Source: Eledone cirrhosa (lineage: Eukaryota). Taken from it: a DNA stretch of 64,000 nucleotides. Under the pieces are notes generated by a model that saw only the letters and a list, made by a program, of their open reading frames with translations, did not search any database and was not told the origin of the DNA. The stretch spans positions 8,308,001 to 8,372,000 of the forward strand of contig OZ024750.1 in NCBI GenBank assembly GCA_964016885.1, read 5' to 3'. This document shows, piece by piece, positions 7,833-64,000 of the stretch (positions are counted from its first letter, which is position 1; the number at the start of each line of letters is the position of its first letter). Made by a program: the position numbers and the translations under genes.

Positions 7833-7886
<54 letters not shown>

Positions 7887-7953
7887 AAGGTTTAGCAAAT
7901 AATGAAAAAGTTTCAAAATAAATTTAAAAAAATTGACTTTACCTACTATAGTT

Positions 7954-8362: not shown

Positions 8363-8419
<57 letters not shown>

Positions 8420-19600: not shown

Positions 19601-19671
19601 AATATATATATATACATGAGATTCTACAGGACTAGAACTGTTTCATTCATTAGAAATCATCAGGAATCTGT

Positions 19672-19720
19672 GATTCCTGATGATTTCTAATGAATGAAAC
19701 AGTTCTAGTCCTGTAGAATC
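19672..19720 (+). ncRNA. Type I hammerhead ribozyme motif (mirror copy on - strand at 19620-19668)
   Basis: GATTC-CTGATGA-TTTCTAATGAAT-GAAA-CAG-TTCTAGTC-CTG-TA/GAATC; stems I and III pair, stem II is short with a U-U closing position. Confidence 0.75.
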
Positions 19721-19806
19721 TCATCTATATTAAAACTGTTATACTCTGCTATGTATTGAGTACCTTACTTACTGTGGTTACCTCCGATTCAACCCGGAAT
19801 AACGTA

Positions 19807-19925
<119 letters not shown>

Positions 19926-24775: not shown

Positions 24776-24855
<80 letters not shown>

Positions 24856-25416
24856 TTTAACATAGAAAGGGCTTTTACAGGACTAGAACTGTTTCATACA
24901 AATGAAACAGTTCTAGTCCTGTAAAAGCCATTTCTATGTTAAATGATAATGCTTACACACTTCTAATGTATTGAGTACTTTTTTAACTGTGGTTACACCC
25001 AGATATTACTCAGGATCTCTGTCTATATATATACGTATGTAAACAGAAATAATGAAAATAACAAAACAAACGGCACAGTACATGGTAGAAATATATTAAT
25101 TTGACGCTTGAAATAGCAGGAAGAGAGTCTTACCATTTCAAACACTAGTCCATCAGAAGAAGATAGAGTTAGAAATAAAAGATAAACAGAAAGTAAAGAG
25201 TGATGAGAGGAAGGAATGGGAAAGAAAATTGGGGAGAAAAAAAACACACGTGTGTATTCAGTCAGCTATCTTATTTATATAATTAATACTAAGTTAATTA
25301 TGGTATTAAAACTGACATAAATCAATTGCAAGATTTGAAAAAATTTGAAAAAATTTGAAAAAATTCTGATTTTGTTTGTTTGTTTCTTTTTCTCGGTTTC
25401 CATTCTGTTCTAGCAG

Positions 25417-25897: not shown

Positions 25898-26927
25898 GTA
25901 AGATTTTATTTACCTTATTTTTTCTTTTGTATTTTCTAACTCAAACCTAAAGAGTTGAGCACTATAGAGAATCTGCTGCTAGTGTAGTTATTGTTGAACC
26001 TCAGCTCAAATCTGATCAAACAGAACTAAAAATGAAAGACATCCCAGCAATGACCATACAGTTATTTGAATGGTTTTTAATGTTTTTCTCTTTTTAAGAT
26101 GGTGTGAATGTGATTTGGCTACTATTTCTTAAAGGTCAAGCTGCATAAAGCCTTTCAAAAGGAGGGTTGGAATCAAGAAGGGTACCCAGCATAGAAACTG
26201 CATCAGCTCTGATTAAGTATTGACTTGGTCTAGGTTGATCTGTCCAAATCTTGCTAGTAGGGAAAATGGATGAAAAATGACAATGATGATGATATTGGTG
26301 ATGAAAGCCAGGCAGACTCTGCAATATGTTAAACCACCTATTTGCTTTAAGGAGTAGTAGAGTGGGTAATATGAAAAGATCAGTACCCCGATGGCTGAGC
26401 CCCGGCCGTTTTGACAGCTAGATCCCGGCTGGAGCTCAGCCGTCAGGGTCCTGAATTTGTTTATATATATATATACACACATACTAAATACTGCAGAAAA
26501 TTGTGAGAAGCCTACTAGTCAGAGATTGTTTTTCACAAGGGACTAAATCGGGAAAAAAAAGCTAACCACGTACTGTTCATCATTTTGAAGTGTTAGAAAT
26601 GTAGCAACAAATACTTAACATTAGTGAGCAGTCTCACACCACATTGCCAATTTATAGCTGAGCAAGGGAATGATAAGTATTTTTACCAAGAACATATGCA
26701 ATGTTTGTTGTTTTTTTGTCTGAAGGTTTGCATTCTAATGAATTGGCCATCTGTGACTATCATCCATCATCTCATTTAATGTGGTATGCTATAATACGAT
26801 TTACATAAAGAAGCTTTGTCAGTGTCAAGGGAAATAAAACTAAAGAGTTTGACATATTTATCAGAGCTGACAGGAAATGGCTATATTGTAGGTCCTGTAT
26901 ATACTGTTAAGCTGATTATATGTAAAA

Positions 26928-27139: not shown

Positions 27140-27176
<37 letters not shown>

Positions 27177-27198
27177 ATAATAATATTTAATATAGAAT

Positions 27199-27249
27199 GG
27201 CTTCTACAGGACTAGAACTGTTTCATTTGGGAGAAATCATCAGGAAGCC
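27199..27249 (-). ncRNA. Type I hammerhead ribozyme motif, same family as 19672
   Basis: Minus strand reads GGCTTC-CTGATGA-TTTCTCCCAAAT-GAAA-CAG-TTCTAGTC-CTG-TA/GAAGCC; 6-bp stem I. Confidence 0.72.
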
Positions 27250-27689
27250 CTGTATTGAGTACCTTACTTACTGTGGTTACCCCCGATTGAACCCAGGATA
27301 AACTTATCTATATATATATATATATATATATATATGCATGTATATGTGTGTGTGTTTGTGTGTGTATGCATGCATTTAGCCTGAAATATGTGCAGCCCAG
27401 CACAAATGACAAAAACAATAGGTAATCATTATAAATAATACTTGAGAAATTTGGGCAAATGTCCCCTCCCCACCTCGTAATGGACTAAAAGTGGACAAAA
27501 GGGTGTCTCTCTGTTCACTATTATCTATCATCATTTTCCATTTGCTTTTTCATGCCTGCATGTTTTGGATGGGTCCTTTCTAGCACAGCTTCACTTCACT
27601 CACTGCGTTCCAGCTCCATCTCCTCTCTTACACACTACATGTTATTCCTCTTATACCTAGTTTTTTTTCTCTAAGATCCTTTATGCTCC

Positions 27690-33565: not shown

Positions 33566-33646
<81 letters not shown>

Positions 33647-33924
33647 GAGTCAGGACCCTGACGGCTGAGCTCCGGCCATTTCGACAACTAGATCCAAACA
33701 GTTTGGATCTAGCTGTTGAAATGGCCGGAGCTCAGCCATCAGGGTCCTGACTCTTTTCATATTACCCACTCTACTACCCTAAGTCTCAAGTACTCTGAAG
33801 CATTATGGTCCACCTGATTTCTTACCACACTTTCTTTGTTTTATATATATATATATGGCAATACATAATGTTCAACTTGCTATGAGCAAAAAATACCTGA
33901 TGATAGTGGTATAGGTCCTTCAAT

Positions 33925-35349: not shown

Positions 35350-35393
<44 letters not shown>

Positions 35394-35714
35394 TATATAT
35401 AAACTCAAAGATCAAATGTTTATTATTAGCACAGATGAAAAATTTAAGCAAACAATTTCTACCTTTGCACTAAATTGTTTGCTTAAACTTTTAATCTCTG
35501 TTAATAATAAATGAATATAATTATTATCATCTGGCAGTATCGGTAGAGGGTCGGACGCCTTGCTTTGATGCATAGAGTTACGGCCCTTGCCATTCTGAGT
35601 TCAAATCCCTCCGAGGTTAACTTTGCCTTTCATCTTTACGTGGTCGATAAAATAAAGTACCAGTAATGAACTGGGTAATTGCTGGCCTTGTGCCAATAGT
35701 AGAAACAATTATTA
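35028..35714 (+). mobile_element. Two SINE family A copies (35028-35198 and 35531-35714)
   Basis: Both match the consensus. Confidence 0.8.
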
Positions 35715-35757
35715 TCATGATCATCACCAGTTAATGTCCATTTTCCTTGATTATATG

Positions 35758-35795
<38 letters not shown>

Positions 35796-36216
35796 AAAGA
35801 ATAGAGGTGTAACACACAAGTTATTATATATTGGTAAACGGAATAGAAAATGCTGACAAATTGTTCACAGTTGAAAAATGGTTTAATTAGGAATAAAAGA
35901 GTATTAGTGATTGTATGGGTTAGTATTCAGTTGTGGTTTTAAGTTTTTAAGTTTTTACCGGTTGCGCATTTCTAAATGCTTTTCAAAAATAATTTTGAGA
36001 TAGAGTGTCCGTGCTGTTTGCTCTGATCTGAGCAAAACCACAACTGAATACTAACCCATACAATCACTAATACTCTTTTATTCCTAATTAAACCATTTTT
36101 CAACTGTGAACAATTTGTCAGCATTTTCTATTCCGTTTACCAATATATATATATATATATAGTTAAGGGTGAAAACAGCGGTTCTTTGCTTCAACTTTAA
36201 TCTGTTATTTTGATAA

Positions 36217-36256
<40 letters not shown>

Positions 36257-36847
36257 GGTATATATTAAGTGAGAAACTCAAAATAGTCGCTTACAATTAA
36301 ATAGCTCAAGGAAAATATTTTTCTGGGCGGTGTAATATAATTGAATATAAAAGAGAGATAAACACAGATATATACATATATGTGTTCGCTAGGGTGGAAA
36401 AAATACTATGAACAATAGGGTTTACCAGAACCAATTTAAAAGAATAAATTAAGAAAAAGAATACAAACCGAAATGATGACAACTATCAAACACCCAGACA
36501 TCTTTTGGTAATGCTGTTTCGCAATTTAGTAAAAGGGAATTACTAATTCTATTGCTCTTCAGTGGGTGTGGAATTAGTAAACCCTTCACCTCTAAGTATC
36601 TCAGAAGACTGAATGGTGTGCGTATATAAAATAACGTACATGGCATCCAGAGCCCAGCGTGTCTCGTAAACCATATGCTACTAAAAATAGGAGCCAAGTT
36701 CACTCGACATTTAAAGTAGCTCTACAAATTCAAGGAGCCAAATTTATCAAAGGTATATATTGAGTTAGAAACTCAACATAGTCTCTTACAAGCGAATCTG
36801 GTCCCCTACGATTTAAACACATATATGTATATATCAGTGTTTATCTC

Positions 36848-36878
<31 letters not shown>

Positions 36879-42520: not shown

Positions 42521-43657
42521 TATCCTCTGGGGAAACGCCTTCCCCGTTCTGTCTGCTGGGGCTGTGGAGAGGCCAGCACGTGGGACCCCATTTGCTCACC
42601 ATACAAAGAGATGGGGAGGGTGAGAGAGATGGAGGTGATGACAATGGGAGTTCAGCTCTTCCACGTTCGGACCATATCTTTGTGGTTGTGTTCATTAAGC
42701 ATGTACAAACCGAGGTGTGATATGGCTGTGCACAATTGACATGATTGCTAGAAAACTGCTAAATATCAAAGTTGAGTATGTTTAACATTGTGAATAGATT
42801 TCATTCCTATGTATAGTGGCAGGAGCTCACTTCAGAATATTTAATAAACAAGTTTTTCATGATAATAATTCAATGACAATGTAATCTTTAGAAAATGTCA
42901 GTTTTCAGTTTAGTAATCTATCATAGGAAGATGTTTGCATGAATGTTTATGTGTCACTGTTTGTATGTTTATATGTATACATCCTTTAGTAGGCCATAAG
43001 AACTCTTTTTTTTTTTTGAGAACTGAAACAAGAAAAAACTGGGGGGGGGGGACTACTACTTTCTGCCCCACAAATCATTATTTTCTTTATTGGTAAATTT
43101 CCTTATGTTTTTTTAATTTCTTTTTATTAAAAGCATATGTCTAAATCATTCATATATGTCCATTGCTTCTTTCATTTGTAAAGATGGGTCAGCAAATACT
43201 TAAAAGCTCTTCTATATATATTTGTTTCTTTTCTAGTGTTAAAATCCATTGCTCCTTTATATTTAATATTATCTAAATAGATAGGTGGTATTATAGAACA
43301 TTCAACACAGAACACAATGCTCCAGTATGACCTTTTTCATGACAGATAAAACAAATTCAAGAACTAAAGAACATAATGTAGTCTTTCTTCTGTAGAGGCA
43401 CATGCATGTTTGTAGAGTTAAAGAGTTTATTTTGCAGCCATGTGGTTTCAGGTTCAGCCCCATTGTGTGGTACCTTGAGCATGTGTCTTCTACTATGGCA
43501 TTGGTGTGGACAATACTTTCTGAGTGGAATTAGATGATGGAATATGTGTGGAAGCTCATCATACACAGGCACACATACACACACACACACATATATATAT
43601 ATATGAGAGAGAGGGAGAGAAATAGAGAGAGAGATGTGTGTATGTACCTTATGTACC

Positions 43658-44165
43658 TTACCTAAATACAAAGTAAAACCTACTACAGTCAGTAGGCATC
43701 TCTAACAAAATACACCCCCGTCCCACCACCCCACCCCATCCACACCGCCCCTTCCAATGTAAAGTTATGTTGGTGCCACAACATCCAGGCCGAAACAAAT
43801 GAGATTGTGTAGGTGTCATGACAAAAAAAGACACAGTCCACGCTGTAATGTGGCCGTGTAGGCAACACGGTAAAAACCTCCCAGTCCCACACTGTAAATG
43901 TGGTTGGTGTTAGGAAGGGCATCCAGCTGTAGAAAACCCGCCAGACAGTCCACGCTGTAATGTGGCCATGTAGGCAACACGGTAAAAACCTCCCAGTCCA
44001 TACTGTAAATGTGGTTGGTGTTAGGAAGGGCATCCAGCTGTAGAAAACCCGCCAGACAGTCCTATGCGAGCAAGACAACCACCCTTGCCTCAAGTGGGAA
44101 AACTCCCGTCCAAACCCATGCAAGCGTGGAACATGGACGTTAAACGATGATGATGATGATGATGA
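43658..44165 (+). mobile_element. 3' UTR copy of the same RTE LINE, with an internal ~120-bp tandem duplication
   Basis: Reverse complement of 56940-57335; block cagtccacgctgtaatg...ccgccagacagtcc occurs twice; (GAT)n tail. Confidence 0.88.
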
Positions 44166-45282: not shown

Positions 45283-45309
45283 TACTATTTTTTGTTTTCT
45301 AATTTCTAG

Positions 45310-45462
45310 TCGACATTTGGTGACAAACTGGTGACAAAATACCTGTTCGACAGTGACTTCAGCGATGACCCTCAACTACCTTCTCCAAATCAACTCAAGT
45401 ATAAAATTTTAATTAAAAATAAAAAATTAAAAGATTTTGATAACCAAACTACAATTAAAAAG
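45310..45462 (+). CDS. PLCE1: PLC epsilon exon, end of X box
   Basis: ttctag acceptor, AAG|gtgagt donor, 153 nt; [39 protein letters not shown]. Confidence 0.96.
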
Positions 45463-45814
45463 GTGAGTTCTTTCTCCTTCTTCTTTTTCTTCTTCTTTTT
45501 CTTCACCCACTTATTCCTGAGAGTTGTGGAAGGTGAATTCCTCAAATGAAAATTTATCAAAATACTGATAATACTGATAATAAAGTACCAGTAATGCACT
45601 GGGGTCAATTTAATCGACTTTCCTCTCCCAAAATAATCGTTAGCTTTGTGCTTAAATCTTTATTTATTATTATTAAATCTTTATTTATTATTTATTATTA
45701 CTTTTTCTTTGGTTTCCTCATAATTTCATTGTTGTTCTGTCAATATTGGGTTGCTACATATAAACCTGCCTTCCGCAACATTAGGTATTTAGCATCTGTC
45801 ATATGGTCTATGTA

Positions 45815-46052
45815 AGGCACATGGCTTAGTGGTTAGATCATTGGGCTTAAAATCGAAAGGTTGTGAGTTCAATTCTCGGACCGGGTGATGTGTTGTTTCC
45901 TTGAGCAAGACACTTTATTTCACGTTGCTCCAGTTTACTCAGCTGTAAAAATGAGATGATAGGACTGGGGTCCCTATCATTAAATCACCCAAGACACCTC
46001 CAGCGAGATATACCTTGGAGGAGGCCAGCTAAACCTGCATAGGTGTGAGCTA
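45815..46052 (+). mobile_element. SINE family B head with a different 3' part
   Basis: Same A/B-box head and core up to gggtccctatcatt, then a distinct tail also present inverted at 39287-39433. Confidence 0.8.
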
Positions 46053-46587
46053 TCACACACACACATATGGTCTATGCTGTGCCAAGCAAACAACGTTTCT
46101 GTAAAGTCAAGAAATTCAATTCAATATCAAACATTTTAAACAAACTAATTAAACTTCAACCCACTCTCCCTAAGACTCCTAATATAATTGAGACAACAAC
46201 TTTATGGAAATTCCAAATTCTCTAACTTTGTTACATTAGTTCATGGTATTTTTCTATTTTGTTGCATAACAATGCTCTCTTTTTTTTTATTGGGTATAAC
46301 ACTATCTGGGCACGAATGTTCAATTTGGCTGTCGGTTTGAATCTTCATATCCCATTAGTATCAGGGACATGGTCTGTTTTATAATCTCTGTCTTCCATGT
46401 TTTATTATCCATGCTTTTAATCTCCTCTTTGTTTCATTTGATAACTCCGCCACCATCACCAACACCGCCACCACCATCACAACCACCAACATCACCACCA
46501 CCACCTCCATACTTTATCAGATCATTGAAACATGTTTTTCTGCCATTTTCCACTGACCAGTAATTATTATTGTATGTTTTAAACACA

Positions 46588-46625
<38 letters not shown>

Positions 46626-47884
46626 GAGTAATAGTGGGTAAGAGGCCAGACTAAAGGTCTCTGAATATTGGCCTTGTCCGTTTAGAAATACTATCCTCGT
46701 ATGATTTCACTTTTCTGGTGTTGGGAGCAAAATATACCAATATTGTTCTAGAATTGATTCTATTAATTATAGCTTTTCTTAAATCGGAAACCATTAATTA
46801 TCTTTTTTCTTAGTGGGGGGTTGGCAGCATCAGTAGAGCGTTAGACACCATGCTTCGCAGCATAGAGTTACGGCCCTTTATGTACTGAGTTCAAATACCG
46901 TTGAGATTAGCTTTGCCTTTCATCTTTATGGGGGCGATAAAATAAAGAACCAGTCACACACTAGGGTCGTTTTAATTGAATGTTCCCGCTCCGTCAAATT
47001 GCTGGCCTTGTGCTTAAAGTAGAAACCATTAATTATAATTTTTGTTTCCTTCCTACAAAATCTAGTTTGGTGAACTTTTGGTGTTGGAATAAAACAAAAA
47101 AAAAACAAAAAAAAACACCAATAATATGCTGGAGTTGATTCTATTGACTTTAGCTTCTCTCTTCCTAGAAAATTAGTCTGTTGTCCAGGCAAATGAAATC
47201 ATTACACATATAAATATTGTTTCTTTGGGGTTGTTAGACAATGCTAGTAACATAAAGATGAATAACCTAAGGTGAAGGTCATCAGATATATACTGTTATA
47301 TAACAACATTTACAAAAGGCTGTTCTAATCAAAACAGTCTTTTGGAAATATTCCATCCCAATTTAACAAGTTCTAGCTATTTTTAAGAATTTCATATTTC
47401 CTTGGAGATTTTTGTTAAATAATTCCTAAGAACCCCCAATTTTCACTGAAATAATTTTCACACTTTTCAGAGACCAAATTTTCAGTAGTGATGTAGTAGT
47501 ATTCTGATCTTCAAAAATGTCATCACCACCATTTATCATCATCATCATCACCATCATCATAACTATCACTATCATCACCATCACCACCATTATCATCATC
47601 ACCATCACTGTCATCACCATCACCACCACCATCACCATCATCATTATCATCATATTGATAGATGGATAGATGGATAGATAGATAGATAGATAGGTGTCTT
47701 TATTTTCCATAGAGAGATACATACATAGGTAGATAACTACAGATAGCTGTTGGTGGACCACTGATCATCTAATCACAACTGTGTGACCATTTCTCAAACA
47801 TATCTAGCACAAAGCAGTTCTCTTGTGGAAGTTGTTTTATTATAAAGATAATATATATATATTATTATATATATTATTATAAAG

Positions 47885-47922
<38 letters not shown>

Positions 47923-48037
47923 ATATATGCGTGTATATATATATATATATGTGTGCGGGCGGGGTATGTATGTGTGTGTAAAAGAAATTAGTTTCTTTCG
48001 TAAAATGTTCCTAATAAAAATATTATTTCCTTGACAG

Positions 48038-48146
48038 GTCTGTACCCACTCACGAACAAGTAGTATGATCTCTTCTGAAAGTGCTTCAATTAATTTTGAA
48101 GAGGACGATGATGAAGACGATGATGAAGATGATGATGTTGCAGATG
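48038..48146 (+). CDS. PLCE1: PLC epsilon exon, acidic X-Y linker (end 48146 if GC donor, 48150 if GT donor)
   Basis: ttgacag acceptor in phase 0; VCTHSRTSSMISSESASINFEEDDDEDDDEDDDVAD, an acidic run typical of the PLC autoinhibitory X-Y linker; donor ambiguous. Confidence 0.8.
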
Positions 48147-49519
48147 GCAAGTAATTTTTATTATTGTTGTTATGTTATTTTATTCATGTTTTTTTTTTTT
48201 TTCTTTCAGTTTATCATTCATTAGATGAATTTTGTTTGAATTACTAAAATGAAGAATTATTTATCTATTATAAAGCAGACCCCTGATCTCCCTGCCAGGG
48301 AGATCAGGGGTCTGCTTTAGTACTGACTTGGTCTATGTAAACTTGTCCCACTCTTTCACCTTGCCCTGCCTGGGTGATTAGTGGCTCAGCTTCAGTACTG
48401 ACTTAGTTGATATAGATCCATCCAAGCCTTTTTCCCAGGCCTGCCTGGGAGATCAGTGGCTCCGCCTCAGTACTGACTTGGACTATATAGACCCATCCAA
48501 TCATTACTAATAGGGAAATCAGACATTAAAATGCCAACTTCATACTGATTTATATTGACTAGTGTCCTAATCTTTGTTTTTATTGTCCCAGTGTTTATAG
48601 TCATTGTACTTTCATTCTCTTCTGATGCCCGTCATAATTGGTAACATTTTAGGGATTTCAAACTAAACCCATGAGAGGTAGATGGTTACTGTTCCATTGT
48701 CCATACCCATGATACCCTTGTACAAGATTAGTTATTGTGATACTACTTGCTCATTTTGTTAAAGTCGTTAGCATTTAAACCAGCCGTATCCAGCCAGAAT
48801 TCTGGCTGCTCATTTTTATGTTAAGGTATTGTCCTCATTTCCATAGAACACCTGAAAGTTGTCTAAGATTGGACTGATTACAAATTAGGGTTAAATACAA
48901 AAATACAAACGTTGAGGTTAAAAATCTGTAAATATTTTCAGCTGAGTATATTGGAACAATGTGAAATAAAGTGTTTTGTTTAAGAACACAACACATAACC
49001 CAGCCCAGGAATCAAACTCATAACATTATGATGGTATGTCCAACACTCTTACCACTAGGCCACTCACCACCACATGGTGATTGAAGATGACTATGATTGA
49101 AGATGGTTAAGATGTTCTCTTCACAATCACTAAGTTTCAGGTTTAATACCACTGTGCATCTTGGCCAAATGTCATTTAACATAGCTATAGGTCAACCTGT
49201 GACCCATGAGTGAAATTGGGCAGTCAGAAACTGTTTGGAAGCCTGTTGGATGTACTGTGTGTGCATCACGCTACATCTCCTTGAGAATTACATAACTGGT
49301 ACACGTGTCTGTGGAATGCTCAGCCACTTGCATGTTAATTTCATGAGCAGACTGTTCCATGGACTGAACAACTGTAACACTCATCATGGATTCTGACGGA
49401 GATCCATTCCACATTAGGGTGTGGTTTACTGATCTGTTGCTAGTAGGGTTGTTTTAGGGTTCACTGTTAGTGAGAGAGACAGAGAGTAATGGTGGTTGTG
49501 AGAGTGGCGGAGGTATTGG

Positions 49520-52500
49520 TTGGTACTGCAGGTGTTGGTGGTGATGGTAGTAGTGATGGTGGTGCTGGTGTTAGTGGTGGTAATGGTAATAGTGTTGGTG
49601 GCAGTGGTGGTAGTAGTGATAGTGCTGGTGTTGGTGCTGTTATTGGTAATATGTAGTAGTAGTAGTGGTAGTGCTGGTGGTAGTATAGATGGTGGTGGTA
49701 ATGCTGGTGCTGGTGTGTGGTAATAGTGTTGGTGGCAGTGGTGGTGTTGGTAATAGTGTTGGTAATAGTGTTGGTGGCAGTGGTGGTGTTGGTAATAGTG
49801 TTGGTGGCAGTGGTGGTGTTGGTAATAGTGTTGGTAATAGTGTTGGTGGCAGTGGTGGTGTTGGTAATAGTGTTGGTGGCAGTGGTGGTGTTGGTAATAG
49901 TGTTGGTAATAGTGTTGGTGGCAGTGGTGGTGTTGGTAATAGTGTTGGTAATAGTGTTGGTGGCAGTGGTGGTGTTGGTAATAGTGTTGGTAATAGTGTT
50001 GGTGGCAGTGGTGGTGTTGGTAATAGTGTTGGTAATAGTGTTGGTGGCAGTGGTGGTGTTGGTAATAGTGTTGGTAATAGTGTTGGTGGCAGTGGTGGTG
50101 TTGGTAATAGTGTTGGTGGCAGTGGTGGTGTTGGTAATAGTGTTGGTAATAGTGTTGGTGGCAGTGGTGGTGTTGGTAATAGTGTTGGTGGCAGTGGTGG
50201 TGTTGGTAATAGTGTTGGTAATAGTGTTGGTGGCAGTGGTGGTGTTGGTAATAGTGTTGGTAATAGTGTTGGTGGCAGTGGTGGTGTTGGTAATAGTGTT
50301 GGTGGCAGTGGTGGTGTTGGTAATAGTGTTGGTAATAGTGTTGGTGGCAGTGGTGGTGTTGGTAATAGTGTTGGTGGCAGTGGTGGTGTTGGTAATAGTG
50401 TTGGTAATAGTGTTGGTGGCAGTGGTGGTGTTGGTAATAGTGTTGGTAATAGTGTTGGTGGCAGTGGTGGTGTTGGTAATAGTGTTGGTGGCAGTGGTGG
50501 TGTTGGTAATAGTGTTGGTAATAGTGTTGGTGGCAGTGGTGGTGTTGGTAATAGTGTTGGTGGCAGTGGTGGTGTTGGTAATAGTGTTGGTAATAGTGTT
50601 GGTGGCAGTGGTGGTGTTGGTAATAGTGTTGGTAATAGTGTTGGTGGCAGTGGTGGTGTTGGTAATAGTGTTGGTAATAGTGTTGGTGGCAGTGGTGGTG
50701 TTGGTAATAGTGTTGGTAATAGTGTTGGTGGCAGTGGTGGTGTTGGTAATAGTGTTGGTAATAGTGTTGGTGGCAGTGGTGGTGTTGGTAATAGTGTTGG
50801 TGGCAGTGGTGGTGTTGGTAATAGTGTTGGTGGCAGTGGTGGTGTTGGTAATAGTGTTGGTAATAGTGTTGGTGGCAGTGGTGGTGTTGGTAATAGTGTT
50901 GGTGGCAGTGGTGGTGTTGGTAATAGTGTTGGTAATAGTGTTGGTGGCAGTGGTGGTGTTGGTAATAGTGTTGGTGGCAGTGGTGGTGTTGGTAATAGTG
51001 TTGGTGGCAGTGGTGGTGTTGGTAATAGTGTTGGTGGCAGTGGTGGTGTTGGTAATAGTGTTGGTGGCAGTGGTGGTGTTGGTAATAGTGTTGGTGGCAG
51101 TGGTGGTGTTGGTAATAGTGTTGGTGGCAGTGGTGGTGTTGGTAATAGTGTTGGTGGCAGTGGTGGTAGCAGCAATAGTGCTGGTTCTGGTAATAATGAT
51201 GATGGCCGTGGTAGTAGTGGTGGTGTTGTTGATAATGGTAATATTGGTAGCGATAGTACTGCTGGTAGTAGTGGTGGTGGTGGTGGTGGTGGTGGTGGTG
51301 GTGGTAGAAGTTGCTATGTGTTGTTGCTATGGAAACAGTCAATTTATTGCTCCTATACATCTCCTGTGATACATATTGACATATCGATGTCGTTGGGTGT
51401 GTCTCAGTACACTGTTGGATTTAATGTGACTAATAGCTTGGAGAGAAGACTAGATATAGTAATGATGGTGGTGGTGATGGGGTGATGGTGATGGTTGTGG
51501 TGGTGATGGGGGGATGATGGTGATGGTTGTGGTGGTGACAGTGGTGGTGGTGACAGTGACACTGGTTGTGTTGGTAGTGGTGTTGGTGGTGACAGTGGTG
51601 GTTGTGGTGACAGTGGTGGTGGTGGTGGTGATGGCTGTGGTAAAAGTGACACTGGTTGTGTTGTTGGTGGTGACAGTGGTGGTTGTGGTGGTGGTGGTAG
51701 TGACAGTGGTGGTGGTGGTGGTGGTGATGGCTGTGGTAAAAGTGACACTGGTTGTGTTGGTAGGGGTGGTGGTGGTGACAGTGTTGGTTGTGGTAGTGAC
51801 AGTGGTGGTGGTGGTGGTGGTGATGGCTGTGGTAAAAGTGACACTGGTTGTGTTGGTAGTGGTGACAGTGGTGGTGACAGTGGTGGTGGTGGTGGTGACA
51901 GTGGTGGTGGTGGTGGTGGTGACAGTGGTGGTGGTGGTGACAGTGGTGGTGGTGGTGGTGGTGATGGCTGTGGTAAAAGTGACACTGGTTGTGTTGGTGG
52001 TGGTGGTGACAGTGGTGGTTGTGGTGGTGGTGGTGGTGGTGGTGACAGTGGTGACAGTGGTGGCGGTGGTGTTGGTGGTGACAGTGGTGGCGGTGGTGAC
52101 AGTGGTGACAGTGACACTGGATGTGATTGTGGTGGTGGTGATGTTTGTGGTAGTAGTACCAATAGTGGTGGTAGTGGTACCAAAAGTGGTGGTAGTGGTA
52201 CCAATAGTGGTGGTAGTGGTACCAATAGTGGTGGTAGTGGTACCAAAAGTGGTGGTAGTGGTACCAATAGTGGTGGTAGTGGTACCAATAGTGGTGGTAG
52301 TGGTACCAAAAGTGGTGGTAGTGGTACCAATAGTGGTGGTAGTGGTACCAAAAGTGGTGGTAGTGGTACCAAAAGTGGTGGTAGTGGTACCAAAAGTGGT
52401 GGTAGTGGTACCAATAGTGGTGGTAGTGGTACCAATAGTGGTGGTAGTGGTACCAAAAGTGGTGGTAGTGGTACCAATAGTGGTGGTAGTGGTACCAATA

Positions 52501-53710
52501 GTGGTGGTAGTGGTACCAATAGTGGTGGTAGTGGTACCAATAGTGGTGGTAGTGGTACCAATAGTGGTGGTAGTGGTACCAAAAGTGGTGGTAGTGGTAC
52601 CAATAGTGGTGGTAGTGGTACCAATAGTGGTGGTATTGGTACCAATAGTGGTGGTAGTGGTACCAAAAGTGGTGGTAGTGGTACCAATAGTGGTGGTAGT
52701 GGTACCAAAAGTGGTGGTAGTGGTACCAATAGTGGTGGTAGTGGTACCAATAGTGGTGGTAGTGGTACCAATAGTGGTGGTAGTGGTACCAATAGTGATA
52801 GTGGTAACCATGGTAATACAGCTGATGGTGGCAGTGGTGTTTTAAGTGAAAGTAGTTGTAGAGTTGTCATTGTCTATAGTGGTGGTGGTAGTGGTGGTGG
52901 TAGTGGTGGTGGTGGTAGTGGTGGTAGTGGTGGTGGTGGTGGTGGTGGTAGTGGTGGTGGTAGTGGTGGTGGTGGTAGTGGTGGTAGTGGTGGTGGTGGT
53001 GGTAGTGGTGGTGGTGGTGGTGGTGGTGGTGGTAGTGGTGGTGGTAGTGGTGGTGGTGGTGGTGGTGGTGGTGGTGGTGGTGGTGGTGGTGGTGGTGGTG
53101 GTGGTGGTGGTGGTGGTGGTGGTGGTGGTAGTGGTGGTGGTGGTGGTGGTGGTGGTGGTGGTGGTGGTAGTGGTGGTGGTGGTGGTGGTAATGGTAATGT
53201 TGATAATTGTTTCTACTTTAGCCACAAGGCCAGCAATTAACCAGTGCATTACTGGTACTTTATTTTATTGACCCCGTAAGGATGAAAGGCAAAGTCAACC
53301 TCAGCGGGATTTGTGAATAAATGCAGTGTGAGTAAAGATGAAGAGTGGTGGTAGTGAGAGTAGTGGTGGTAGTAGTGAGAGTAGAGGTGGTAGTAAGAGT
53401 AGTAGTGGTAGTAGTGAGAGTAGTAGTGGTAGTAATGAGAGTAGTAGTGGTAGTGAGACTAGAGGTGGTAGTGAGAGTAGTGGTAATAGTGAGAGTAATG
53501 GTGGTAGTAGTGAGAGTAGTGGTGGTATTGGGAGTAGTGGTGGTAGTAGTGAGAGTAGTGGTGGTAGTGGGAGTAGTGGTGGTAGTAGTGAGAGTAGTGG
53601 TGGTATTGGGAGTAGTGGTGGTAGTAGTGAGAGTAGTGGTGGTAGTGGGAGTAGTGGTGGTAGTAGTGAGAGTAGTGGTGGTAGTAGTGAGACTAGAGGT
53701 GGTAGTGGCA
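49520..53710. repeat. Compound G/T-rich triplet-derived satellite block
   Basis: 12/24-bp units (gtgttggtaata, gtgttggtggcagtggtg) at 49715-51165; gtgaca/gtg units at 51520-52140; 21-bp gtagtggtaccaa(t/a)agtggtg at 52150-52795; (GTG)n at 52878-53190; gagagtagtggt units at 53345-53705. Confidence 0.95.
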
Positions 53711-54200
53711 TATGTGAAGAGACATGTTTTTTATGGTAATATTTGTTTCTACTTTTGGCACAAGGCCAGCAATTATTCCAGTGTATTACTGGTACTTTAT
53801 TTTATCGACCCCGATAGGTTTCATGAAATTGTTACAGGTGGTATTGTTTAGCCCTAGGTCAACATTGATAGAGTAGGCCTTTGGTCTTGTTGTTTAGCCC
53901 TAGGTCAATGTTGCTAGAGTAGGCCTCTGGGTCTTGTTGTTTAGCCCTTGGCAGAGGCATAACTAGGAAAAATAGCATCTATGGCAAGCAATGATTTTCC
54001 GCCCCTGCCCGGTACCGTATTTTTACCTATGAGTCCCCTTCATATATATATATATATATATATGTCAGTGGCTAGTTGAGAGAGAGTCGTATCGGTTGCC
54101 AGTTGCTAATCGCTTTACCGTGTCGGTTGTCACAAACAGTCATGACCGGCATGGGCCGGTGTTTGGATTCTGTCGATCGATTGGTTATTGATTAGGCGTT

Positions 54201-54300
54201 ACCCGCTGATGAAGCCGCATAAGCTGATTGTGCATTGTTGCATAATATATGCAGACAGATGGTGCAGTGCACCTTAGTGCTGCAGAAACTCGAGTCCGTG
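54201..54300 (+). ncRNA. Hammerhead-like motif with long stem II insertion, partly degenerate
   Basis: acccg-CTGATGA-agccgca...tgctgca-GAAAC-TCGA-GTC/cgtg; palindromic ACTCGAGT stem III; only 2 contiguous bp in stem I. Confidence 0.55.
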
Positions 54301-54599
54301 AACCTTATAGGCACCCGTTTTACGTGTTGTGTTGAGGCAAATAACTATGTGTATACTCTGGTAGTGTATCTTACATTGCCCATTGAGTGCGCTGAGATAC
54401 AACCGGTACTGGCATTGATAAATATGCTGGGTCCGTCAACCCTTATTATTATATATATATATATATATATATATATTAATATAACTGATTAAAGTTTAAG
54501 CAAAGAATCGCTGCTTTCACCCTTAATATATTTGATATATATTTATCTTTATCAAGCCCTCTTTGGATTTTAGTCTTCACATTTATTATTATTACTATA

Positions 54600-55083
54600 T
54601 CATCATCATCATCATCATCAACGTTTAACGTCCGTGTTCCACGCTTGCATGGGTTTGGACGGGGGTTTCCCACTTGAGGCAAGTGTGATTATCTTGCTCG
54701 CATAGGACTATCTGGCGGGTTTTCTACAGCTGGATGCCCTTCCTAACACCAACCACATTTACAGTGTGGGGCTGGGAGGTTTTTACCGTGTTGCCTACAC
54801 GGCCACATTACAGCGTGAACTGTGTGTTTTTTTGACGTGACACCTACACGATCTCATTTGTTTCGGCCTGGATGTTGTGGCACCAACATAACATTACATT
54901 GAAAGGGGCGGTGTGTATGGGGTGGGAGTGGTGGGACGGGGTGTATTTTGTTAGAGATGCCTACTGACTGTAGTAGGTTTTACTTTGTATTTAGGTAAGG
55001 CGGGTATTCTCTATTACTGAGTACCGCCAAAGGTCTCGGTCCAGTGACATTGTCTTGGAGAGGTGTAAGTGTGTGAGGTCGGA
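54600..55083 (-). mobile_element. Short 3'-end copy of the same RTE LINE
   Basis: Highly similar to 56939-57423 (last ~30 codons, 3' UTR, (CAT)n tail). Confidence 0.9.
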
Positions 55084-55368
55084 ATTATATATATATATAT
55101 AAGTATGTACTTATATATATATATAAGTATGTACACGTACATACATATATGTATGTACGTCTGTATACATATATGTATGTACGTGTACATACTTATATTT
55201 AAGTAACAGCCGTACTAAGAGTGGGAAATGAAATTTTGTTTCATTTTTTCCGTTTATCGTTTTCGGTGCACCCGGCCGATTAAACCACTCGATCTCCAAA
55301 TTGGGCTACTCAGCCGTTAATATGCATAAGTTAAATATATACGTTCAACAATCTGGCAGGATGGTATA

Positions 55369-55409
55369 CATTGCTGACAATAGATAATAAGCTTGAAACT
55401 AGTACAGCG
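55369..55409 (+). ncRNA. Degenerate minimal hammerhead motif (core G8 to A)
   Basis: cattg-CTGACAA-tagataataagctt-GAAAC-TA-GTA/cagcg; palindromic ACTAGT; imperfect stem I. Confidence 0.45.
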
Positions 55410-55981
55410 TTCCTTTGTCAGTGTTGAACAAACGAGCAACGATGGTTGCTGGACACTACGGCTTAGTATGGGATGTTTGTTTACAAACACACCGAGCATT
55501 ATAATAAATGTTCGGTGAATCCATACGTACATATATATATGTGTGCATGTATGTATATAAATATACATACTACTGTACGTCTGTATACATATATGTATGT
55601 ACGTGTACATACTTATATTTAAGTAACAGCCGTACTAAGAGTGGGAAATGAAATTTCGTTTCATTTTTTCCGTTTATAATATATATATATATATATATAA
55701 TATATATATATTATATATATATATATATATTTAATATATATATATATATAATATATTTAATATATATATATATATAATATATATATAATATATATATATA
55801 TATAATATATATATAATATATTTAATATATATATATATATATAATATATATATAATATATATATATATATAATATATATATAATATATTTAATATATATA
55901 TAATATATATATATATATAATATATATATAATATATATATATATATAATATATATATATATATAATATATATATAATATAT

Positions 55982-56013
<32 letters not shown>

Positions 56014-56119
56014 ATATATATATATGTTTCTTATTGGCAACATGACCCTCCCAAAGCATAACAATATATATATATATATATATATGTTTCTTATTGGCAA
56101 CATGACCCTCCCAAAGCAT

Positions 56120-56189
<70 letters not shown>

Positions 56190-56195
56190 TATATA

Positions 56196-56433
56196 GACAC
56201 TTTATTTCACATTGCTCCAGTTTACTCAGCTGCAGAAATGAGATGATAGGACTGGGGTCCCTATCATTCCACTGCAAAGTGGTCGTGGAGGTGCCACGGC
56301 AAAAAAGCACCCAGCACTCACTGTAAATGAGGTTGATATTCGGAAGGGCATCCAGCTGTAGAAATCAAGCCAGAATCAGTTCCCATCCCACCCTTGCAAG
56401 CAGTAAAAAGCGGACGTAAAATGATGATGATGA
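56196..56433 (+). mobile_element. 5'-truncated SINE family B copy
   Basis: Matches 11110-11350; (ATG)n tail. Confidence 0.8.
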
Positions 56434-56784
56434 TATATAGATATATATATATATATATATATATGTAGGAGGTGAGTTTTATTGTAGTACAATAAAGCGA
56501 TGCAGATATCGGATAAGAAGCACTCTACAGTTTGTGGGACTGGAGTATGCATAATATAAGATCAAAAGATGGTTAAAGGAGTTCAATATATTTTATTATG
56601 CGCATTTCAAAAACAAACATCATCAAACAATAATATTTGTGTTTTCATCAGATAAAACAGGAGAACATGATATGAAGGCTAAAAAAACACTTGTTGATAG
56701 TGCAGTTTTAAATCAACATAACATATGTTGATTTAAAACTGCACTATCAACAAGTGTTTTTTTAGCCTTCATATCATGTTCTCC

Positions 56785-56855
56785 TGTTTTATCTGATGAA
56801 AACACAAATATTATTGTTTGATGATGTTTGTTTTTGAAATGCGCATAATAAAATA
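56785..56855 (+). ncRNA. Type I hammerhead ribozyme motif (mirror copy on - strand at 56589-56659)
   Basis: TGTTTTAT-CTGATGA-[~15-bp stem II with one mismatch and two G-U pairs]-GAAA-T-GCGC-ATA/ATAAAATA; 8-bp stem I, palindromic ATGCGCAT, AUA triplet. Confidence 0.8.
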
Positions 56856-56885
56856 TATTGAACTCCTTTAACCATCTTTTGATCT

Positions 56886-56938
<53 letters not shown>

Positions 56939-56941
<3 letters not shown>

Positions 56942-59016
56942 TCATCATCATCATCATCAGCGTTTAACGTCCGTGTTCCACGCTTGCATGGGTTTGGACG
57001 GGGGTAGTCCCACTTGAGGCAAGAGTGATTGTCTTGCTCGCATAGGACTGTCTGGCAGGTTTTCTACAGTTGGATGCCCTTCCTAACACCAACCACATTT
57101 ACAGTGTGGGTCTGGGAGGTTTTTACCGTGTTGCCTACACGGCCACATTACAGCGTGGACTGTGTGTTTTTTTGTCGTGACACCTACACGATCTCATTTG
57201 TTTCGGCCTCGATGGCGCGGCACCAACATAACTTTACATAGAACGGGGTGGTGTGGATCGGGTGGGGGTGGTGGGACGGGGTGTATTTGTTAGAGATGCC
57301 TACTGGCTGGAGTAGGTTTTACTATATATTTAGGTAAGGCGGGTCTTCTCTGTTACTGAGTACCGCCAAAGGTCTCGGTCCAGTGACATTGTCTTGGAGA
57401 GGTGTAAGTGTGTGATGTCGGAGTTTATCAGCTCGTCCCAGGTTTTTCTAGGTCTGCCTATTCCGTGACTACCGTCTATCTTTATTGCCCTGCACTTTGT
57501 TATACAGCTATCGACTTTCATGCGCATCACGTGTCCATACCAACGTAGCCTTCTCTCGAGTAAACAACATCTGATCCCTCTTATCTCTAATTTATTCCTT
57601 AGTTCGTTTATGCTTTGCCGTTCACGTATATTACTGTTACACATCCAGCGGAGCATGCAAGCTTCGTTCCTCTCTAGTCTGCGTATATCCTCTGCACACA
57701 ATGCCCAGGTCTCACTGCCATGCAGCATTGCTGTTCGTATGCAGGCATCGTACAACCTGCCTTTCATTTTTAGTGAGAACCCTTTAGCAGCTAATAGTGG
57801 TATAAGCTCTCTGAACTTTTTCCAACCAGTTCTGACTCTAGCTACAGTACTTTCAGAGCACCCTCCCCCACTGCTGATTTTATCGCCCAGGTAACGGAAG
57901 CTGTCCACTATTTCTATAGAACCCTCTGCGCAATTGAAAGAGCTAGTAGTTTGTGGGCACTTGCTGCTACTTATTGCACCAGAGCACCGGCCACATGTAA
58001 AATCTATGTTCTTAGTTAGCCTACCTGTGATCCCACTACATCTTTTATGCACCCATACTTTGCATTTAGGACATAAAATGGAGTTTCTACCTACGCCTTT
58101 CCTACACACCGAGCACGACCATTTCCCAGAAGGGACCGCCGCCTTGTTTTCTTTCCTACAAACTAGTACTTTGGTCTTAGCCAGGTTAATTTTAAGTCCT
58201 TTTGACTCTAGGCCGTGCTTCCATGTTTGGAATTTCTTCTCTAGCTCGGCCATTGATTCCGCTATGAGTGTCAGGTCGTCTGCGTATAGGAGTTCCCATG
58301 GGCAGCCTGTCTTGAACTCCTCTGTTATGGCCTGAAGGGCAATAATAAATAGTAGTGGACTGAGAACAGAGCCCTGATGGACGCCGACTTTTACGCTAAA
58401 CTCTTCACTATATTCGTTGTTAATTCTAACCTTGCTGACTGTTTCTTTATACATGGCTTGTATAGCCCTCACAAGCCATTCGTCAACGCCTAGTTTTCTA
58501 AGAGCCCACCAGATAATGGAGCGGGGGACTCTGTCGAAGGCTTTCTCCAAGTCGACAAAAGCTAAGTAGAGGGGTTTACCTTTAGCTAGGTACTTCTCTT
58601 GTAGTTGTCGTACTATGAAAAGAGCGTCTGTGGTACTTTTGCCTGACACAAACCCGAACTGCATTTCATCTAGGTCAATTCTCTCTCTGATTAGCTGCGC
58701 TATTACTCTTTCCGTGACCTTCATGACCTGGTCGATTAATTTAATGCCTCTATAGTTACTCCTATCTAGGGCGTCTCCTTTACCCTTATAACAGTTAACG
58801 ATGATGCTGCTATGCCAGTCCTTCGGAACAACCCCGTTTTGTACGACTTGGTTAACTATGCGGGTGACCATGGTGTGTCCCACCGTGCCAGATGCCTTCA
58901 GCATCTCAGCAACTATTTCCGAAGGCCCAGCCGCCTTACCAGTCTTCATATCCTTGATTGCCTTACTTATTATACTCCCCTCGACTAACACTGCTGGTCC
59001 CTCTATTGGGTCGATA
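56939..59016 (-). mobile_element. 5'-truncated RTE-type LINE: uninterrupted ~560-aa reverse transcriptase region, 3' UTR and (ATG)n tail
   Basis: ORF 57330-59015 has NYRGIKL, QFGF, AFVDLEKAFDRV, GVHQGSVLSPLLF, YADD, FRYLG, RLRWYGHVMR and GRPRKTW; no endonuclease domain; the first ~46 aa of the tracked ORF are (TA)n; flanked by (TA)n tracts. Confidence 0.95.
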
Positions 59017-59060
59017 TAAAATATATATACATACACACACACATATATATATATATACAC

Positions 59061-59128
<68 letters not shown>

Positions 59129-59458
59129 TATATATACACACACACACAGACACATATATATATATATATATAATAGTGTATAAAAGTTAGAATCTCATCT
59201 ATATATATATCTATATATATATATATATATGGTGGGGTGTCTGACTGAACACACTAATGTTTTTTCTCCTCCAAAACTCGTTTCTGTTTCTTTCTCTGCT
59301 CACTCACCTCCATCTTTCTTGTTCTGTCGTTTGATGAAAGACTGGCATCCAAAACATGAAAATTCTTTGCCTACTGTATCAAGCATTAAACTAATATATA
59401 TTTTCATTGTACTGTATTGTTTACCGTATTGTTATCTGTTTATGTTTCACATACATAT

Positions 59459-59518
<60 letters not shown>

Positions 59519-60476
59519 GTGTTACATATGTTCTTTCATCACTTCTGTATCTAATTTCTATAAATATTTCATAAAAAACATGCTTCTTTTATTTCCATAA
59601 GGTCCGAAGGTCACGAGTTTGATTCTTAGATAATGTGGTTCATTGTATCCAGGAGCAAAGCACTTCTTTTCATATTGCTCCAGTTTAAATTACTACCAGC
59701 ATCAGCTGAATGTGGGCTTGTAGTGGACTTTAGACTTTTTAAACTTTTAACACAACACTGATCTAGATTCTAAGTAATTACTATGTATAAATCCAGGTTG
59801 ATCAGATTTGAAACCAATTAAAAGACAGTATATATATAAATATTAATACATGTTCTATCTTTAAGAAAATGGTTAATAGCCTAGATAATTATCATCATAT
59901 TAACAATTCATTCCAGGTGTTTAGACACATAAACAACTTGAAATATTTCATGAAAACTTTAAACTTTTCTAAATGAATCGATCTTACCCAACCTCACAGT
60001 CTTTTCACTTGCCTACTGGCAGATCTACAACTACATTACAGTAACATAATGATAGAAGTGATAAATAACAATTAATAAAAAGAAGAAATTTTAGAGATAC
60101 GATAAATTTATAATTAATTATTGGAGCAGAGAACAAAGTGAGTGAAAGAAACCCTGATGATGTCAATGAGTAGTTTTGTACATTTGGCATGTATAGAATA
60201 AAGCAAAATATATGGTAATGAGAATGACGGAATAAACAACAATAGATTTCCTTTCTTAGCTTCGGGAATCAGACATTAATGAAATCCTAATAAATATATA
60301 ATTATGATAGCATTTAAAACTACCATTGCAAAATAATTTGTTGTTAAATGTGTTTACTTTAGAAAATATCCAACATATTATTCCATATTTCTTGTCTTCC
60401 TTCTTTGTCTATTTGCCTCTAGAAATATACAATGTGATATTGTTATATTTTCTTTTAAATTCTCTCCTTCTGTCAG

Positions 60477-60503
60477 GCTGCCAACTCTATCGGAAACAAT
60501 TTG
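60477..60503 (+). CDS. Candidate 27-nt frame-preserving microexon in the X-Y linker intron
   Basis: Strong pyrimidine tract (tttcttttaaattctctccttctgtcag), 27 nt without stops in phase 0 or 1, TTG|gtaatt donor; no homology support. Confidence 0.35.
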
Positions 60504-62902
60504 GTAATTAAATTTGTGTGATTTGTTGTTATTTTTTTCCCCACCCAATTTCTTTCTGAATTGATTCCTATCTCTATTGTACTATTGTACCAATGTTTTA
60601 AATTGTGTCTTACCTTTTTGCCTGCTTGGTTTACATAACTTTGTATAGCTTTCTCTTAATTTCCCTTCAGTCTTTTTTTCTTTTTGTCTGCATGTTTTTC
60701 TCCCCACCTCACCATCTCATTTGTTTGGCTTTCTGTTAATTGTTCCTGTAGGACAAACTGGTAAAAATTCAGTAGGATCTCCCGATAAGAATTTAGCAGC
60801 ATATTGGATATTACTTTATTGTTCGTCATTTTCCTGTGTGGTATCATATCATCATTTATTCATTTTGACTTAAAGAATATATTGATTTCGTGAGTGAATA
60901 ATAATATTATAATAATAGTATTAATATAATAATAATATTATTAATATAATAATATCATTAATATTTTATTCGTTTGCAAGCAAACAGCCTCATAACGCCT
61001 TGTGTTGTAGATGGCTAACGTCATCCTTTTGTTCCAGGAGTAGCAGAGGGAAAAACAATCTACAATTGTTGGGGGGTTATTGCCCCTTATCTAGATTGTG
61101 TATTCCTCCCTTTTCTGCTACACACTGAAACATATTGTTTGTTTTCCCAATTAAATCTTGTTTTCTTTGGTATCTTTTCAATATATGTTGTTTTATGAAA
61201 TATATGTTTGACTAACTAACTAAACTTATTTGTTGACAAATAGTAATCATATCTTCATTTTATGATCTATATTTTGATGGGATATTGATATCTTGATAAA
61301 GTTGTATTGATGTAAGAATAAAATATTTCAACACTTTAGTAGTAAAATGATTCAATATATTTGTTATTGAACCCTCATATCACAGGTCTTCATTTCAAAT
61401 TCTTTTCTGCATTTGGTCATCTCAGTTTACCTACATTTTAGGAGCAGGAACCATATTGTTTGGTATCAACTGGAATTTATTCTTCACCTGGGTAGATTTT
61501 TCACTCATCTGCTTAACACCATAAAATACTTGACCTTAATTGTTTTTTAGATCTTTGGAGAAAATTTCAAACCATGAGTTCTGATTCCAATTGGAATTAT
61601 TAACTGAAGTTTTTTTCTAAATATAATTTTAGATTATTGTAAAATAATCATGAAAGTTGTTAGTTATGATCTCTCCACCACAATCACTAAATAAAAGCCC
61701 CTTTCGGTCAGGAATGACCATGGGATTTGTACCTAGAAAATCCCCCTCTGAAGCACAAGTCTGGGCAAGCTTGTTTGTGGAAGACCAGAAGTCGCCCATG
61801 CATGCCAGTCTCCTCTCTCCATGTCACCAATGTTACCCAAGTGAAAGGAGGCAAAGGTCAATATAGTTTTTGAAAAACGAAAATAAAATAAAAAGAAAAG
61901 ATAAGTTCTTAATTAGTTCATTGTTTTATGATCGTTTCAGAGGATTGATTGATCATGATAAATCGATATATTGACTAATAGAGGGTGGTTATGTAACCAC
62001 CTATTTCTAATCTTGATATCCTAAATCCATCTTACTGTCATCCCCAGAAACAATCATTTCAGAAATGAGATGCAACCATTATCTATGTATGTAGTTATAT
62101 AGATATATAGTTATTTATATATATATATATATATATGTTTGTATGTGTGCATAGAGAAGGAGAAAAGGAGAGAGATGGAGTGAGAGCTATATATGAAAGC
62201 ATATACAATATGTTTATGTATAATAAATATATATGTCTCACTATAGATATTTTAAAGTGTGATCATGTCACAGCTTCGTCAGTAAACACATGACTACATG
62301 ATATATATATATAATATATAATATTTCAGGATATATTTATCAATCATTAGTTATGTTTATTCATGTGGTACTCGGGCAAATATAATGATTCAAGCTATTC
62401 TGCAAGATAAATGAATATTGTATCTAAACCTTGGGACATACAACTACATATGTAGTGAATGGTAAAACTTATAATGCATGGATTGGATATATCATATATT
62501 ACCCATTGAACTTGATATCAATATCACTGAGTTGTTTCATCTGTTTCCATTTATATCCATTTTCATGTGTGATGAAATAAAAGAAGATATTATGTAAATT
62601 TTGAGATTTGCATATTTTTCTCTAGAGTAAATATTCTTTTATAGATAAATGCCTCTCTTTACCATTAATCATCCAGCCATATACTAGAGGAAGGGTGCCC
62701 ATTGGCAGCATGCTAGTGTGAGGCTAATAGACATATTATGTGTCTTCCCTAGGGTCACAACATATTGGCTATAGAAATGTTGAATATATTGACAATACAA
62801 TCAGAAATCCAAAACCTTATCATCACACTCATGTCATAAATATTGAACTGCTCCTGAGGGTGAAGAGAAATTCCAACAATATAGAATATTAAAAAAATAT
62901 CA

Positions 62903-63982
<1,080 letters not shown>

Positions 63983-64000
63983 TGTTATACTTTGGGAGGG

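Follow-up and report, generated by a model that had tools for sequence, protein, structure and literature searches.

A perfect hammerhead-bearing palindrome in the Eledone cirrhosa genome, a likely head-to-head insertion of a Penelope-like element end

The 343-bp palindrome at positions 56551-56893 of a 64,000-nucleotide stretch of Eledone cirrhosa DNA (contig OZ024750.1; the whole of this 64-kb stretch is referred to as the window) is a young, near-maximal-length copy of an abundant repeat that carries a hammerhead ribozyme motif. Its architecture marks it as a likely stub of the Penelope-like element (PLE) family. On this reading, the 3' end (pseudo-LTR) of such an element entered a (TA)n tract in two copies joined head to head, with the mirror half likely made during insertion from the template sequence that also gave its partner. 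That the unit is built like a PLE insertion is well supported by the features described below, and descent from a PLE is the likely explanation of them. Taken alone, the locus is unremarkable, being a recently inserted repeat with the known PLE layout; the fixed tail-less arm, the variable tail-bearing arm and the 2:1 depth of arm ends to tails seen in its family bear on how the inverted structures of PLEs form.

The two arms are complementary at 170 of 170 positions around a loop of ACA, exactly the perfect 343-bp palindrome with a 3-nt loop that an initial annotation of this DNA had described, and the first mismatch going outward falls at 56550/56894. With 0 mismatches in 170 pairs, the divergence of the arms is bounded below 1.7%. 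The insertion is wider than the palindrome alone, as the palindrome and the adjoining 56465-56550 together occupy the gap between two (TA)n tracts, and the whole unit is composed of (TA)n, an 86-nt tail on the left only, the palindrome and (TA)n. Read on the minus strand, the unit begins with (TA)n and the inverted arm, passes through the loop into the sense arm that bears the hammerhead, and closes with the 86-nt tail and (TA)n. A short self-complementary motif, CATATG (56722-56727), is found at the palindrome centre. The features of the unit are:

56441-56464, no strand: (TA)n tract, left part of the putative target microsatellite, from sequence
56465-56550, minus strand: one-sided tail of 86 nt, the 3' end of the element on this strand and not unique flank, as judged by contig depth and by contigs that run from tail into arm
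56551-56720, minus strand: tail-bearing arm with the hammerhead motif in sense, variably truncated in other copies
56589-56659, minus strand: mirror copy of the type I hammerhead motif, core at 56651-56645, predicted cut between 56597 and 56596
56721-56723, no strand: head-to-head junction with the loop ACA; 3 or 5 nt are missing here in other copies
56724-56893, plus strand: tail-less arm, with a near-fixed start at 56720-56725 across family copies and its end in (TA)n
56785-56855, plus strand: type I hammerhead motif (stem I, CUGAUGA, stem II, GAAA, UGCGCA, AUA), predicted cut after 56847
56891-56939, no strand: (TA)n tract, right part of the putative target microsatellite, from sequence

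No open reading frame is present in the 426-bp unit, and no target-site duplication is readable at the locus, where TA tracts lie on both sides. The 64-kb window holds no second copy of the arm or tail, and a direct pLTR or partial tandem is absent at the locus. A tRNA scan returned 0 matches, as did Rfam at gathering score across the 64-kb window; when relaxed to E<=10, the Rfam search of 56400-57000 gave 46 matches, none of them to a hammerhead family. Matches to miRNA families in this interval were rejected, as all lie below gathering score and reflect the perfect hairpin only.

The family to which the palindrome belongs was followed in the contigs of public sequencing runs (X1, X6, X4 and X5, out of 24 listed) over the stretch 56466-56770, which included only 47 nt of the right arm; for this reason, and with 15 of the 35 joints listed, truncated tail-less arms may be under-counted. 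Part of this stretch is contained in 20 run entries from 16 studies, only 3 of these entries containing half or more of it, and no RNA runs are among the listed runs that contain it. The entries carry 17 organism labels, and the evidence used here comes from the four runs named. In X1, which may be the sample from which the window was assembled, 3,473 contigs match the stretch, 967 of them at 99% identity or more, and the summed depth reaches 1.75 million compared to 23-171 for the single joint contigs listed, a figure that is not a copy number but implies that the family is very abundant. The tail is likewise multi-copy, with a summed depth of 0.4-0.9 million in X1, and contigs in X1, X4, X5 and X6 continue from tail into arm; X4 and X5 each provide one contig at a depth of about 3 with 0-1 differences, which could be trace DNA and is not taken as a sign of spread across species. 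The ratio of arm-end to tail depth in X1 is 2.03, as for two arm ends per tail. A 25-nt motif compared with metagenomes gave 0 matches.

The joints between arms are asymmetric. All of the 15 joints listed (of 35) lead from a variable position within 56494-56673 to the narrow interval 56720-56725; 10 of these 15 land at 56723 and seven begin within the tail. The centres of X1 copies lack 5 nt in 22 contigs and 3 nt in 7, each resulting in a loop-less palindrome, and loose ends at 56551 abut TA repeats in both X1 and X6. Minority family letters at 56585, 56588, 56626, 56627 and 56695 are present in both arms of the palindrome, the other letter accounting for 74-95% of depth; a single template for both arms would predict this sharing. 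The initial annotation had attributed the perfect arm identity to a very recent origin or to gene conversion; the lack of mismatches agrees with the former, and the latter is not needed, since the construction of both arms at insertion from one template would explain their identity by itself. Nor does the tail call for gene conversion, as a single near-private change there (56499), compared with no difference separating the two arms, would be insufficient evidence for it.

Insertions of endonuclease-bearing (EN+) PLEs typically target microsatellites, have a tail on one side only and carry, at their 5' end, a truncated copy in inverted orientation (PMC8557442), and the layout of the present unit follows this plan closely. 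An inverted truncated copy lies head to head at the 5' end in each of the 15 joints listed (of 35), a multi-copy tail continuous with the arm (56465-56550) occurs at one end only, a type I hammerhead motif is located near the 3' end, and the target is a (TA)n tract on both sides. The head-to-head inverted copy, the junction palindrome, the one-end tail, the (TA)n or AT-rich target and the hammerhead near the end are all shared with the units described in PMC3846280, PMC8557442 and PMC11167929. Unlike EN+ PLE units, the one described here has no open reading frame, spans only 426 bp in its entirety and has no driver element that was found; its tail of 86 nt compares with the 30-40 bp of published PLE tails, and here it is the tail-less arm whose start is near-fixed, the tail-bearing arm being the one that varies.

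The unit also resembles the Hydra-clade PLEs, which include Hydra-1_Obim of Octopus bimaculoides, a (TA)n-targeting, hammerhead-bearing PLE (PMC8557442 supplement); recently active Penelope-like families are also reported from octopus (PMC13282606). The preference for (TA)n and a hammerhead approximately 100 nt from the 3' end are common to both, and in several Hydra-clade entries, as in the palindrome, the core is followed by an additional base and GAAA is preceded by a U, but the stems listed for them are unlike those of the palindrome (PMC8557442). Six motifs drawn from the hammerhead families of the window, including two from the palindrome element, gave 0 matches in the Craig et al. supplement (PMC8557442). 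No PLE reverse transcriptase or GIY-YIG endonuclease could be tied to the family through the open reading frames of the unit or the loose ends listed, and no endonuclease C-terminus was recognised by eye in a six-frame reading of nine elements.

The same plan recurs within the window. A palindrome with a tail is found at 7883-8364, 8417-8615, 19614-19807, 24852-25023 and 33643-33841, with arm identities of 77-97%, and 27174-27308 holds an inverted arm and tail only. These identities make the palindrome at 56551-56893 the youngest-looking example, and the occurrence of several unrelated hammerhead families with one plan was counted in favour of a PLE insertion layout.

The mechanism proposed here is in line with the behaviour of the PLE protein of the anole, which cuts AT-rich DNA on both strands and extends each of them (Frangieh et al. 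2024; PMC11167929) and begins reverse transcription at two RNA sites that bracket the tail (PMC11167929). The TA target would be nicked on both strands by a PLE reverse transcriptase/GIY-YIG endonuclease provided in trans; one cDNA would start at the distal site of the element RNA and include the tail, the other would start at the proximal site and exclude it, and the two growing ends would become joined. The tail-less cDNA would usually reach a fixed point at CATATG, and the tail-bearing cDNA would stop at variable points. At the palindrome locus both cDNAs would have reached the fixed point, with one template sequence giving rise to both 170-bp arms. Within a host read-through transcript, these arms would anneal to each other, and the resulting long duplex would likely be edited by ADAR. 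Junction palindromes in PLEs have also been interpreted as products of self-priming (Arkhipova et al. 2013; PMC3846280), and a fold-back of this kind would account for the loop-less centres as well as the joining of two cDNAs does.

The alternative that fares best shares this insertion mechanism and so overlaps with the reading as a PLE stub. It holds that the family is a short non-autonomous element (a mini-PLE or a retrozyme-like SINE), approximately 255 nt long and possessing a fixed 5' end of its own, that is mobilised by PLE proteins, rather than the truncated stub of a long PLE, and we consider it a serious possibility while leaning somewhat against it. The near-fixed start at 56720-56725 is what such an element would display, no consistent body upstream of 56722 emerges among the loose ends listed (12 of 100), contigs running on into unlike sequence have a share of 0-0.01, and non-autonomous PLE derivatives are on record (PMC8557442; bioRxiv 10.64898/2026.07.22.740005). 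However, these contigs, fragments of a tangled repeat, are short and seldom reach far, a single diverged X6 contig of 328 nt (record 15) runs on for 214 nt beyond 56720, the start does not coincide with the hammerhead cut site, and the locus lacks a tandem array. A bolder form of this idea, which we regard as speculative and rather unlikely, is that the family constitutes a self-contained, non-autonomous mini-Penelope, roughly 255 nt long, whose 5' end is fixed at the short palindrome, the perfect hairpin of each insertion being formed from one full-length and one variably truncated cDNA. If true, thousands of intronic hairpins would constitute a main source of the long-dsRNA load and hyper-editing of octopus, and the junction spectrum would serve as a natural dataset for weighing two-cDNA joining against self-priming.

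Two further alternatives are far less credible. A captured hammerhead within a palindromic DNA transposon of the MITE or foldback type, mobile as one unit, would suit the perfect inverted arms and the TA target context, but it is very hard to reconcile with a one-sided tail, variable and asymmetric junctions, centres that differ among copies, the 2:1 arm-to-tail depth and the plan shared by unrelated hammerhead families of the window; instead of fixed symmetric termini, variable truncation of one arm is seen in every one of the 15 joints listed (of 35). An artefact of assembly or library fold-back is comparably improbable. The arms are 100% identical, X1 may be the source sample, and the exact centre is bridged by no listed contig, none of those listed combining the centre of this very locus with its unique flank; yet the loop is asymmetric, the tail is one-sided, and older, diverged palindromes of the same plan populate the window. 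Moreover, contigs of related copies do cross the palindromic centre, as exemplified by record 8 (56682-56762), which spans it with approximately 39 nt on each side, and by the 22 and 7 contigs with shorter centres.

Each arm contains the conserved core and stems I and II of a type I hammerhead motif along with a minimal helix III, and the full hammerhead per arm of the initial annotation holds for stem I, stem II, the core and the AUA triplet but not for helix III. On the plus strand, stem I pairs 56785-56792 with 56848-56855 (8 bp, one G-U), and the core CUGAUGA and the GAAA occupy 56793-56799 and 56836-56839, respectively. Stem II (56800-56835) is AU/GU-rich, with 15 of 16 positions paired (four G-U), one C-U mismatch and a 4-nt loop. 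The helix III segment UGCGCA (56840-56845) is followed by the AUA triplet and would provide one or two A-U pairs at most, capped by the palindrome GCGC; AUGCGCAU is self-complementary and forms a duplex of -10.5 kcal/mol. A strict hammerhead descriptor found 7 matches in the window compared to a mean of 0.015 and a maximum of 2 in 200 block shuffles, and a relaxed descriptor demanded the closing pair of stem II and so missed the family at 19.6/27.2 kb.

Fold prediction gives the active monomer a probability of 3e-5. In the full hairpin (-268.6 kcal/mol), every core base is predicted to pair with its own mirror at P of at least 0.997, which bears out the earlier suggestion of burial in long dsRNA; a transcript of either strand does, as had been stated, hold the antisense arm first and the sense arm second. 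The fold of the single arm is no more stable than that of shuffled sequences (z = -0.64), and the invariance of the core among shared family variants is not significant (0/13, p=0.21). Read by eye, one variant loose end changes two stem II U-G pairs to C-G, and a 29% variant changes one stem I G-U to A-U.

PLE hammerheads whose helix III is palindromic are believed to work in dimeric form (Cervera & De la Pena 2014; PMC4209133), and PLEs are known to contain opposite-strand hammerhead pairs 100-700 bp apart (PMC4209133). A one-pair helix III with a palindromic tetraloop has also been described in axolotl retrozymes (HHR_Amex1; 2020, PMC7229834). Compared with PLE and retrozyme type I hammerheads as presented in PMC4209133 and PMC7229834, the motif shares the CUGANGA and GAAA core, the long helix II, the one-pair helix III with palindromic tetraloop and the opposite-strand pairs, whereas its AU/GU-rich helix II, of 16 positions, exceeds theirs in length and has A-U as its first pair in place of the usual G10.1-C11.1, and its copies are inverted and not tandem, so that no cis dimer is possible. 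A non-LTR retrozyme was rejected, as the locus has a single inverted pair and not head-to-tail tandem repeats.

Because helix III offers only the GCGC palindrome and a dimer would be needed, the monomer is likely inactive, and because the two motifs lie on opposite strands, one transcript never carries two sense copies for a dimer in cis. A single minimal Schistosoma PLE hammerhead was inactive in vitro (PMC4209133), a precedent from which the motif would likely be off even without the antisense arm. On these models the hammerhead is predicted to be a dimer-type passenger, inactive here and off for two independent reasons, with the antisense lock as a predicted by-product. In the anole, the PLE hammerhead showed no cleavage without protein and was dispensable for insertion in vitro (PMC11167929).

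Variation among family copies carries a signature that resembles RNA editing. Sites were called X6-specific at a frequency of at least 3% in X6 and below 0.1% in X1, a threshold set after the table was seen, and 10 of the 27 variable sites listed qualify (3.5-10% in X6, <0.1% in X1); site 56634 (35% vs 7.6%) was left out of this count. All 10 are A>G or T>C, compared to 4 of the 17 others (Fisher p=1.5e-4). The arm contains every one of them and the tail none (p=0.03), and each is preceded by a 5' U or A (p=0.011). ADARs prefer a 5' U or A. The editing-like sites map into stems I and II, and editing of both arms of a hairpin would produce the combined A>G and T>C pattern that is seen. X6 is a run of unrecorded type, not on record as RNA, from a different sample than X1, and its signal may instead reflect alleles or a subfamily. 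On balance, the palindrome hairpin is probably edited; the proposal in the initial annotation that it is an ADAR substrate gains from the A>G/T>C excess at the level of the family, a signal that is not tied to this locus.

In lizard and X. tropicalis, Penelope elements rank with the most heavily edited repeats, and octopus bears an exceptional dsRNA load (PMC5625713, PMC10636886). The Harbinger elements of Xenopus and the Penelope elements of lizard and Xenopus are likewise self-folding repeats with long dsRNA and an A-to-G signature; unlike those hyper-edited repeats, the signal described here comes from the contigs of one run of unrecorded type. Hairpins of this kind may feed the high hyper-editing of octopus; Porath et al. 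2017 were unable to annotate the repeats from which it stems, and octopus lies outside the repeat-level analysis of that study (PMC5625713). A literature search, mostly without subscription papers, returned no paper on this repeat family or its editing.

The plus strand of the window bears a PLC-epsilon-like gene with RasGEF, weak PH and PI-PLC-X exons, whose best protein matches are molluscan at 48-50% identity. The last exon detected ends at approximately 45402, and no later-domain PLCE1 exons were found in 45401-64000. The palindrome is probably intronic; the PLCE1 pre-mRNA context given in the initial annotation is consistent with the PLC-epsilon-like exons on the plus strand, and the intronic position is what we infer beyond the last of them. 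No link of the palindrome to PLCE1 function was found. The suggested self-silenced ribozyme, taken as a device, is not supported by the low predicted probability of the monomer fold, the minimal helix III or the high-copy form of the insertion. A selected regulatory device in PLCE1 pre-mRNA, namely an antisense-locked ribozyme freed by editing or unwinding, is the least credible reading of all: although the duplex is predicted to bury the motif and the editing-like sites of the family fall in stems I and II, the palindrome is a young insertion of a high-copy family without conservation evidence at the locus, the monomer is predicted to be inactive regardless, and editing at stem I adenosines turns A-U into weaker I-U pairs.

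Several other elements of the window merit description. A second hammerhead family with a short stem II and a longer helix III is located between TA tracts at 19614-19807, 24852-25023 and 27174-27308, with one tail sequence common to all three; the first is a palindrome with 53-bp arms and two back-to-back hammerheads, and the second is a half-motif palindrome. In the element at 7883-8364, the inverted arm bears a hammerhead (core at 8032, minus strand) and the tail-bearing arm (8192-8271) begins exactly at the predicted hammerhead cut site, which hints at self-cleaved RNA as the template, contrary to the in vitro result in the anole. A hammerhead element at 36253-36852 (core CUGAAGA at 36562, minus strand) combines a 47-bp direct repeat with a 42-bp inverted repeat and resembles a partial tandem. 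A third palindrome-plus-tail family is found beside TA tracts at 8417-8615, 33643-33841, 26354-26483 and 8663-8745, and contains only the GAAA...UC half of a hammerhead-like motif. Inverted repeats at or around TA tracts, without a hammerhead core, occur at 35392-35759, 35792-36142, 63387-63504 and 48271-48319, and long G-rich tandem arrays of 9-27-nt units, with a GC skew of up to 0.81, extend over 49650-53250.

Adjacent to the palindrome, a 5'-truncated non-LTR retrotransposon occupies 56940-59186 on the minus strand, with an open frame of 618 codons that includes RVT_1 and a PHD finger, and terminates in a CAT repeat that adjoins the TA tract of the palindrome. Inverted copies of its 3' end (43656-44165 vs 54705-55000 and 56942-57288) are 91-94% identical; they flank the PLC-X exon near 45300-45400 and could pair over a long range in the pre-mRNA.
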